From a virus (Duplodnaviria > Caudoviricetes): a stretch of 56,792 nucleotides of DNA. Of this stretch, positions 11,030 to 11,980 are shown piece by piece (positions within the stretch are counted from its first letter, which is position 1; each line of letters opens with the position of its first letter). The stretch covers positions 1-56,792 of IMG/VR virus record IMGVR_UViG_3300036906_000230; one strand, given 5' to 3'. Position numbers and translations under genes: made by a program. A model generated the notes under the pieces. That model searched no databases. It was given only the letters and a program-made list of their open reading frames with translations, and had not been told where the DNA came from.

Positions 11030-11140
11030 TCGCTCTTGCCCATTGGTGCTCTCGCGCCCATTGGCTCGCTCCGACACGATGGTTCCTTCTGGCTGCGTGG
11101 CTCGCTCGGCCTCGATGGTTCTCTCGGTCTCCTTGGCTGC
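11030..11140 (-). ncRNA. TIGR-like dual-repeat guide array A1 (3 units of 36 nt)
   Basis: Minus strand: GCAGCCA aggagacc GAGAGAACCA tcgaggcc GAGCGAGCCA cgcagcca GAAGGAACCA tcgtgtcg GAGCGAGCCA atgggcgc GAGAGCACCA atgggcaa GAGCGA; CCA recurs every 18 nt. Confidence 0.85.
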
Positions 11141-11146
11141 GTTCCG

Positions 11147-11980
11147 CTACTTCGCCGCGCCCGCTAATACGTCGAGCCCCGTTTCTTGCCCGATGCGTTC
11201 CCGGATCTCGCGGAGCGCGTCTTCGATAAACCGGTGCGGGCGCACGACCTCGTACCAGAAGACTGCCTTCCCTTCCTGCAGCCGCCACCGGAACCGCACC
11301 GGAATGCGGTAAGCCGGCCCGCCGACATGAATGGGAATGCCGAGAATGAACTGCTCAGGCACCTCGAGCGTTCCCTTCTGGGCGGCGCCGCGCACCACCT
11401 CGTCGTAGGCAAACTGAATCTGCCCGTTGTTCAGCCGCACGCCAGAGGAGAACTCGACCGACTTCTTGGCTTCGAACGTAAGAGCAACCTGAAGCAACTC
11501 CGCGCTGTTCGGCTCCACCACGTCGGGCATGTTGTCTTCGAGGAATCTTGCGAAATCGACCTGGGTCATCTGCTTGCGGTTCTGGTTCATCCAGGTGGTG
11601 AATTCCACGGAGCGGCGCGCGGCGAACCCGGCAACGTGCTCGCACCAGCCCGGCACCCCGTTGCCGGCGTGATAGTCGATCACTACCTGGAACTGTTCGT
11701 GCTCCTGATCGAAGAAGATGCGGCTGACCTCGCGATCGCCGAACTCCCCCACATACGCGATGAAGGATGCGGCGTCGTGGAGTTCCACCTTCTGCTGGAT
11801 GCGCAGCGGGCGGGGCATGAAGTCTTCGAGCGATTCGACCTTGTAGTTCTCCGGCACCACGGTGTAGAAGCCCACCGGCACCGCTGATTCCGGAATCGCG
11901 CGCGGATCGCCCAGTGCGGCTCCGGCGGCGATCGCGGACTGGACGTCCCCGATTTTGCTGTTGTCGTCGTTATACGGCAT
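11147..11980 (-). CDS. DUF2303 (YfdQ) family protein
   Basis: VIDYH, MTQVDFARFLED, FSSGVRLNNGQIQF, VPEQFILGIPI motifs. Confidence 0.9.
   Translation of the reverse strand: MPYNDDNSKIGDVQSAIAAGAALGDPRAIPESAVPVGFYTVVPENYKVESLEDFMPRPLRIQQKVELHDAASFIAYVGEFGDREVSRIFFDQEHEQFQVVIDYHAGNGVPGWCEHVAGFAARRSVEFTTWMNQNRKQMTQVDFARFLEDNMPDVVEPNSAELLQVALTFEAKKSVEFSSGVRLNNGQIQFAYDEVVRGAAQKGTLEVPEQFILGIPIHVGGPAYRIPVRFRWRLQEGKAVFWYEVVRPHRFIEDALREIRERIGQETGLDVLAGAAK

Follow-up and report, generated by a model that had tools for sequence, protein, structure and literature searches.

The window studied here, i.e., the whole 56,792-nt stretch of the IMG/VR virus record IMGVR_UViG_3300036906_000230, encodes a dual-repeat system of tandem interspaced guide RNA and its associated Tas protein (TIGR-Tas) in a provirus of a Bryobacterales-type host. 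Its array of three TIGR units (11026-11136, minus strand) lies between a gene of the DUF2303 (YfdQ-like) family and an operon for the nuclease-free protein TasA and a ParB-domain fusion protein. The 16-nt guide of unit 1 perfectly matches the DUF2303 gene of close relatives at codons that the window itself spells with four silent differences, and these differences are part of an excess of changes in the target. On balance, and with modest confidence, we read this pattern from the sequences as allele-specific targeting of kin phages combined with escape of the phage's own copy.

The unit-1 guide and its candidate target in the DUF2303 gene

The DUF2303 gene (11147..11980, minus strand; 277 aa; Pfam PF10065 with E = 1.5e-62; PHROG 210) is followed right at its stop codon by a 13-nt array leader (11134..11146, minus strand) that ends in a box C motif (CCA at 11134-11136). 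Each of the following units measures 36 nt and is composed of spacer A (8 nt), a loop repeat (10 nt), spacer B (8 nt), and an edge repeat (10 nt); Tandem Repeats Finder reports a period of 36 with 2.4 copies at 11061-11146. In unit 1 (11098..11133, minus strand), spacer A occupies 11126-11133, the loop repeat 11116-11125, spacer B 11108-11115, and the edge repeat 11098-11107, which is the only part of this unit outside the segment that had been flagged earlier (11106-11187). Units 2 (11062..11097) and 3 (11026..11061) follow on the same strand, with unit 2 shared with two close relatives (L089 and L090) and unit 3 ending in a degenerate repeat and carrying two near-identical spacers, its first half being absent from the same two relatives. 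CCA stands 5' of 6/6 spacers of the array, and the bases 3' of each spacer read GA(G), unlike the UG box D of TasR arrays; box C/D motifs of TIGR arrays are described as free to diverge and covary (PMC12045711). Relatives have long arrays with the same repeats as the window's array.

Close to its 3' end, the DUF2303 gene spells the amino acids QETGLD as CAAGAAACGGGGCTCGAC (minus strand), with GTA TTA and five further codons after that. Spacer A of unit 1 joined to the reverse complement of spacer B gives AGGAGACCGGCCTCGA, and the resident site (11172..11187, minus strand; 38 nt from spacer A) agrees with this 16-mer at 12/16 positions, with mismatches at target positions 2, 5, 8, and 11 that all fall on third codon positions and are all synonymous. 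This reading bears out the original prediction, which had described a 12/16 match to the resident yfdQ gene with all four mismatches at wobble positions. The window contains 11 sites that match the unit-1 16-mer at 12/16 or better (11 for unit 2 and 8 for unit 3), so the resident match alone is at chance level, and it is the test in relatives that lifts the unit-1 match above chance. The target is spelled at home with minor codons of the window genome, e.g., CAA and GGG account for 15% of Gln and 17% of Gly codons in 33 long open reading frames of the window. The codons GTA and TTA next to it, which had been singled out as unusual, are indeed rare in these reading frames (8% of Val and 1% of Leu), but GTA followed by TTG also occurs in the alleles L093 and L128, so this spelling is partly inherited.

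Relatives, all of them metagenomic contigs, were collected by aligning TasA against species genomes (31 loci, including one at 97% in a Bryobacterales metagenome-assembled genome, MAG) and by aligning DUF2303 against metagenome contigs (57 loci), and 55 DUF2303 alleles had a readable 3' end. As had been predicted for yfdQ homologues of related phages, the exact 16-mer is present at the homologous codons in 3/55 of these alleles (L089, L090, and L092, with protein identities of 97%, 96%, and 84%), and two more match it at 15/16 (L093 and L128, at 81% and 83%). The records that carry the unit-1 guide (the window, L087, L088, and L056, with identities of 100%, 100%, 99%, and 98%) match at 12-13/16, i.e., 4/4 have a re-spelled site, and guide and perfect site occur together in 0 records. 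By our own arithmetic, a given 16-mer is expected ca. 2e-4 times in the 407,519 nt of sampled DNA (the window and L053-L143, both strands).

The target-bearing relatives had also been predicted to lack an array, which holds for L092 to the extent that tasA directly follows the DUF2303 gene with no array in between (as in L091 and L095), but not for L089 and L090. These two carry an array with a different unit 1, and their tasA, which begins ca. 119 nt past the DUF2303 stop, is interrupted by an in-frame TGA (codon 68) and has unrelated sequence in place of its 3' part. Judging from this gene, the TIGR-Tas system of L089 and L090 looks dead. Yet another arrangement is seen in L097, in which a DUF5131-type gene comes directly after an array of one unit, without a tasA between the two; a tasA-like match is found further downstream.

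The DNA either side of a variable patch comprising the site, the leader, and unit 1 is 93-98% identical between close relatives. When the window is compared with L089, the body of the DUF2303 gene shows 0-5 differences per 50 nt, rising to 10 in the final 50 nt of the gene and to 35 in the array's first 100 nt, after which identity returns. Polarized with three outgroups, seven substitutions map to the branch that unites the four guide-bearing records, another four map to the sub-branch of the window and L087, and 3/11 of them lie in the 16-nt target of the 834-nt gene (binomial p = 0.001); the fourth target change, from GAG to GAA, was left out of this count as it is shared by L091. The fourth mismatch to the guide arose later, on the sub-branch of the window and L087.

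As a sequence, the 16-mer is unremarkable for high-GC coding DNA, and searching viral contigs for exact copies returned 51 loci, of which none belongs to a DUF2303 gene or lies close to a Tas gene. These contigs contain few close relatives (one DUF2303 relative at 68% and two TasA relatives), so this search has no bearing on the question; with 51 matches outside any DUF2303 gene, it would on its own have made us wrongly discard the idea of a kin allele. Many of these 51 loci (L002-L052) encode an EETGL(D/E) stretch, which we take to resemble the Nudix box. A host target in Nudix-type genes was considered and dropped, as no site with at most 1 mismatch occurs in the related host MAG (5.8 Mb), which contains the 97% relative; this genome being incomplete, the result is not proof of absence. 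An order-level genome search for more alleles matched 5/401 genomes and added no new close relatives.

Some details of the array itself are worth recording. A 9-nt direct repeat flanks unit 1 (11090-11098 and 11134-11142), i.e., the end of the leader equals the end of the edge repeat plus the "spacer A" of unit 2, and 7 nt of this repeat flank the different unit 1 of L089 and L090. The repeat may be a trace of unit insertion or swapping, and the first spacer of unit 2 may be a remnant of the leader. In unit 3 (11026-11061), both spacers start with the same six bases, which would make a joint target nearly palindromic, and an 8-mer of this unit recurs as the last spacer of L057; rather than encoding a guide, unit 3 may have arisen by partial duplication or be a trailer.

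Guide geometry, other arrays, and the TasA operon

In TIGR systems, spacer A is reported to pair with one strand and spacer B with the other, with gaps of 0-2 bp tolerated and ends that are 3' overhangs (PMC12045711), and from this strand rule we derive that a target should read A + revcomp(B) on one strand. We scanned the 407,519 nt with 67 consecutive spacer pairs from 30 DUF2303-linked arrays, including off-phase pairs; for arrays of other lineages, the DNA sampled was 1.5-3 kb around the gene. The A + revcomp(B) geometry resulted in 6 perfect matches and 24 at 15/16, compared with 0, 0, and 1 perfect matches and 4, 2, and 2 at 15/16 for three control geometries. Counted per guide, there were 2 perfect matches and 4 at 15/16 vs. 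0 and 1 in a reversed database. Targets with gaps of 1-3 bp gave no gain over gapless ones, and 0/67 spacer pairs reached at least 15/16 in their own locus. Gapless targeting by tandem spacers A and B on opposite strands therefore appears to account for the natural matches, and the opposite-strand 8+8 geometry that the original prediction had proposed agrees with the published rule and is, one stray match aside, the only one with perfect matches. It is not new but the published geometry with 8-nt instead of 9-nt spacers.

Guides of other lineages match other DUF2303 sites. The first guide of L126 matches the EIPEQF codons at 16/16 in L099, L116, and L135 and at 13/16 at home, and its second guide the ENMPDV codons at 15/16 in L110 and 13/16 at home. 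The guide of L058 matches the GKL(T/I)FW codons at 15/16 in L106 and 11/16 at home; the two cases at 15/16 are each within chance expectation (1-2 of 67 guides). Unit 1 of L089 matches the NGQIQF codons at 14/16 at home and at best 14/16 in relatives.

The window carries three more small arrays, all on the minus strand, which have the repeats of the main array and, at a distance of 36-39 kb from tasA, are grouped around a ParB-methyltransferase gene and a gene of 172 aa. Of these satellites, A2 (47695..47756) has two units, A3 (49316..49413) has three and lies just upstream of the ParB-methyltransferase gene, and A4 (49627..49662) is a single unit for which no target of at least 14/16 was found in the DNA scanned. 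The packaging region in which they lie holds two ParB-domain DNA methyltransferase fusions in tandem (45475-47139 and 47761-49455), one of them bracketed by A2 and A3. Several guides of A2-A4 match flanking genes, at 11-13/16 at home and up to 15/16 in relatives. Unit 2 of A2 corresponds to the 172-aa gene, which sits 150 nt downstream of this array; the match is 13/16 in the resident copy (47529..47544, minus strand) vs. 15/16 in 26/45 loci of viral relatives, none of which shows an array. Five viral relatives of the packaging module have no DUF2303 gene and were used for the A2-A4 guides only. In their near-whole records (245 kb), 6/6 matches of A2 and A3 guides at 14/16 or better fall in homologues of array-flanking genes, and a reversed control of the same scan gave 0 matches. 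The pattern thus recurs, with guides of L126, L058, and A2/A3 matching flanking genes better in relatives than at home, which supports the targeting of kin alleles.

The gene following the main array (10175..11014, minus strand) encodes 279 aa from an ATG at 11014 and overlaps by 4 nt (10175-10178) the gene of a 576-aa fusion of ParB_N and the radical-SAM-like DUF5131 domain (8448..10178, minus strand), a "TasParB"-type partner. Its product is a Nop-domain protein that scores 203.8 bits against the TIGR-Tas model NCBIfam NF052498 (cut-off 100), and phmmer matches in the PDB comprise TasR (9mty, 1.3e-19) and TasH (21kl, 2.7e-12), limited to the Nop/C-terminal part. A structure model built from a 40-sequence alignment (mean predicted local distance difference test, pLDDT, of 85.6) is all-helical with one short hairpin, and all top 10 Foldseek matches are TasR or TasH chains (template modeling score, TM, of 0.52-0.69). 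No RuvC, HNH, or beta-rich nuclease domain was found by domain search, in the PDB matches, or in the model, and a match to HNH_3 in a C-terminal loop stays under the cut-off (20.2 vs. 24.8 bits). Matching the Tas family without RuvC or HNH, the gene is therefore tasA. In dual-repeat systems, pre-tigRNA is processed by a Y/H loop at the C-terminus of the Tas protein. Across the 40 aligned sequences, H266 is fully conserved and Y259 almost so, and the two residues, which may or may not correspond to the catalytic ones of TasH, belong to the C-terminal hairpin. The partner is recognized by ParB_N (49.8 bits, cut-off 26.3) and DUF5131 (131.8 bits). Domain searches found no above-threshold nuclease domain in either protein, and we know of no nuclease activity of a ParB-radical-SAM partner. 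By gene order and domain content, we assign the pair to the TasA-TasParB type of operon, with tasA predicted to be translationally coupled to the ParB fusion.

Explanations for the guide-target pair

If the locus targets kin phages by allele, the array would be transcribed with or just after the DUF2303 gene, and TasA would process the transcript so that unit 1 yields a 36-nt TIGR guide RNA (tigRNA). Its two 8-nt spacers would pair with opposite strands of one gapless 16-bp site, which would be the common, ancestral-type spelling of six codons near the DUF2303 3' end that close relatives still carry. The resident copy encodes the same amino acids with four third-position changes, one of them at position 5 of spacer A, and because of these mismatches the phage's own ribonucleoprotein (RNP) should not bind at home. 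In a cell with a related phage, the TasA-tigRNA complex would bind the DUF2303 gene of that phage and block transcription or replication through the site. The rival's DUF2303 gene would lie directly upstream of its own array, tasA, and parB genes, and such a roadblock could, speculatively, silence the rival's system. In published experiments, DNA binding and transcriptional repression by TasA RNPs depend on the guide (10.64898/2026.09.09.750476), and cleavage by TasH is strongly reduced by most single mismatches and abolished by adjacent double mismatches, with position 5 of spacer A being critical (10.64898/2026.08.11.744272). An RNP that binds the kin site but not the resident site would be in line with both.

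Several observations weigh against this scenario. The mismatch discrimination predicted for a TasA-ParB system with 8-nt spacers is extrapolated from TasH, and a target at the 3' end of the DUF2303 gene means that any effect would need a roadblock for downstream genes. As many as 61/67 spacer pairs (off-phase pairs included) have no above-chance match in the sampled DNA, and for units 2 and 3 of the main array, the only match of at least 14/16 is one for unit 2 (14/16 at G405:4095). The four guide-bearing records form one close lineage, with L087 100% identical in the DUF2303 gene, so that the mutual exclusion of guide and perfect site amounts to one evolutionary event vs. two target-bearing lineages. 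Within this lineage, L056 and L088 have a 1-nt change in spacer B that brings the match to relatives down to 15/16, and the guide shows no sign of being kept perfect. The rare GTA TTA codons lie outside the 16-bp site, and the three silent differences at the target of A2 unit 2 are not above the 13% background DNA divergence. Moreover, the patch in which the window diverges from L089 begins ca. 40 nt ahead of the DUF2303 stop and takes in the leader and unit 1, and a single recombination tract could explain the re-spelling without per-site selection, perhaps joining site and guide. The earlier proposal that the resident copy was recoded to escape has the clustering of changes in the target in its favor, but one recombination tract could look alike.

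The spacer may instead be self-derived, which we consider unlikely, though worth weighing: some local process would have copied it from the lineage's own DUF2303 gene, and either the resulting autoimmunity was resolved or the two copies drifted apart. Self-binding would be harmful or neutral, the window lineage would have changed its site, L089 and L090 would have lost the unit and tasA, and the match to kin would be a by-product. The nonsense codon and replaced 3' part of tasA and the different unit 1 in these two relatives fit such a course, as do the drift of spacer B in L056 and L088, the lack of excess change at A2 unit 2, and lineage-specific silent states that some guides share with their own gene, which hint at an origin within the lineage (a rare Pro codon in L126 and Gly and Gln codons in L089). 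However, the system is intact in the window lineage, the pattern is found in several arrays and lineages with no pair at 15/16 or better at home, and the clustering of changes in the target opposes pure drift, if not the resolution of autoimmunity. We think it improbable that guide and immune site travel as one linked cassette that is copied into a rival by repair, after a break or stalled fork at the rival allele that arises from the ParB-radical-SAM partner or from replication. Such homing-like drive would account for guides that lie ca. 40-800 bp from their corresponding genes at three separate loci of the window, for near-whole-record scans that match only homologues of flanking genes, for a variable patch between close relatives that is exactly site, leader, and unit 1, and for the direct repeat that brackets this unit. 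Compared with a homing endonuclease, the element does lie beside its site and matches it at 12/16 at home vs. 16/16 in kin, with "immune" and "sensitive" alleles inferred from the match alone, but no cutting nuclease was found: TasA lacks a detected nuclease domain, and the partner is not known to have nuclease activity. Furthermore, most relatives already have array and tasA at this place with no clear "empty" allele, and the adjacency of guide and gene in other lineages is partly an effect of the narrow sampling around the gene.

A negative feedback loop, in which the imperfect self match is a working site that the RNP binds weakly upstream of array and tasA, seems very improbable to us. Regulation of this kind through partial matches to self is known for some CRISPR systems, and the site, 38 nt ahead of spacer A, does share the strand and probably the transcript of the array. 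A nuclease-free binder, however, needs no mismatches; the gene has moved away from the guide faster than its surroundings, with the fourth mismatch arising later on the sub-branch of the window and L087; and the mismatch sensitivity published for TasH is strong. Coincidence, finally, is close to refuted. It could be argued from the ordinary high-GC character of the 16-mer, from the 51 exact viral-contig matches in unrelated genes (many EETGL-like), and from the chance level of a 12/16 match in the window, but the perfect match was found where it had been predicted beforehand, at homologous codons of the same gene in the closest relatives, and neither the control geometries nor the reversed database gave such a result. 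Going beyond this locus, the small TIGR arrays of this phage family might be selfish "guide plus immune allele" cassettes that adjoin the gene they recognize since their spacers come from flanking DNA in cis and/or since linkage allows guide and silently re-spelled allele to pass jointly into kin genomes by recombination, a generalization that we regard as rather doubtful. That they would amount to RNA-guided, nuclease-free homing or marker exclusion, possibly with help from the ParB-radical-SAM partner, is a similarly tentative suggestion, and we would put no greater trust in the idea that the 9-nt repeat around unit 1 is the scar of a unit insertion and, as such, a first clue to how TIGR units are gained.

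Relation to known systems and possible transcription of the locus

The system is a member of a described kind, i.e., TIGR-TasA with a ParB partner. It resembles the TasParB loci of Faure et al. 2025 (PMC12045711) in its Nop-only Tas protein, the ParB-like gene in the operon, the 36-nt units with 10-nt edge and loop repeats, the CCA box C before each spacer, and spacers that address opposite strands. It differs from them in the DUF5131 radical-SAM-like domain added to the partner, in the three small arrays far from tasA, and in having a perfect kin match and a silently changed self copy, as the account of those loci reports no natural target (PMC12045711). With the MbTasA and dead TasR repressors of Xu et al. 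2026 (10.64898/2026.09.09.750476), it would share a nuclease-free Tas RNP, binding of DNA by guide, and a block of transcription; suppression of competing mobile elements is named there as one possible role. Unlike that system, the locus studied here comes with a candidate natural target and, putatively, with silent changes as the rule that separates self from non-self. Faure et al. (PMC12045711) and Xu et al. (10.64898/2026.09.09.750476) leave open what TIGR spacers naturally target and where they come from, the theme of natural targets is not touched in the text consulted of the papers on TasH and PlTasA, and we found nothing in the literature, supplements aside, on a role of TIGR-Tas involving natural targets, superinfection, homing, or silent changes.

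As far as the sequences tell, what is new comprises a guide with a candidate natural target, silent changes that would set self apart from non-self, small arrays linked to the genes that they correspond to, and the satellite arrays. The locus provides a candidate natural target with a built-in negative control, i.e., a perfect allele in kin and a resident allele with four silent changes, and these matched alleles make the role of a nuclease-free TasA directly testable. If our favored reading is true, phages use RNA guides for kin discrimination at the level of alleles, silent codon changes serve as self-immunity, and models of spacer gain have to allow for the genomic linkage of arrays and targets.

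Free-standing homing endonucleases of T-even phages adjoin the gene that they recognize, with sensitive relatives, a differing site in the carrier, and co-inheritance of the two (intronless homing and marker exclusion). The TIGR locus is similar in that the element lies beside the recognized gene, the site of the carrier is altered, and relatives carry the sensitive site, but here recognition would be by RNA and no nuclease was detected. Self-matching CRISPR spacers create a conflict that ends by target mutation or effector loss, and CRISPR interference can work without cleavage. As with such spacers and with CRISPR systems of mobile elements, guides borne by the element match relatives or self, and target mutation or effector loss is seen. 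Unlike them, the locus has no adaptation machinery and no protospacer-adjacent motif (PAM), its 16 bp are split over two strands, and self-discrimination would rely on silent codon changes only. CRISPR systems of mobile elements that act in competition between elements include types IV and V-M (cited in PMC12045711).

Concerning expression, a scan limited to sigma-70-type signals detected neither a promoter-like nor a terminator-like sequence in the stretch from the DUF2303 gene to the array, and it did not support an internal promoter created by AT-enriching silent changes. Among four RNA runs, X1 contained a single contig (206 nt) that equals a stretch of the DUF2303 gene, X2 had three contigs from a relative, one of which spans array units 3/2 and the start of tasA (with possible DNA carry-over), and X3 and X4 had no matching contig, which is too thin to show expression. 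In the records L058, L095, L097, and L126, a GC-rich hairpin separates the DUF2303 stop from the array or tasA; it is missing in the window lineage, and transcriptional coupling may accordingly differ between lineages.

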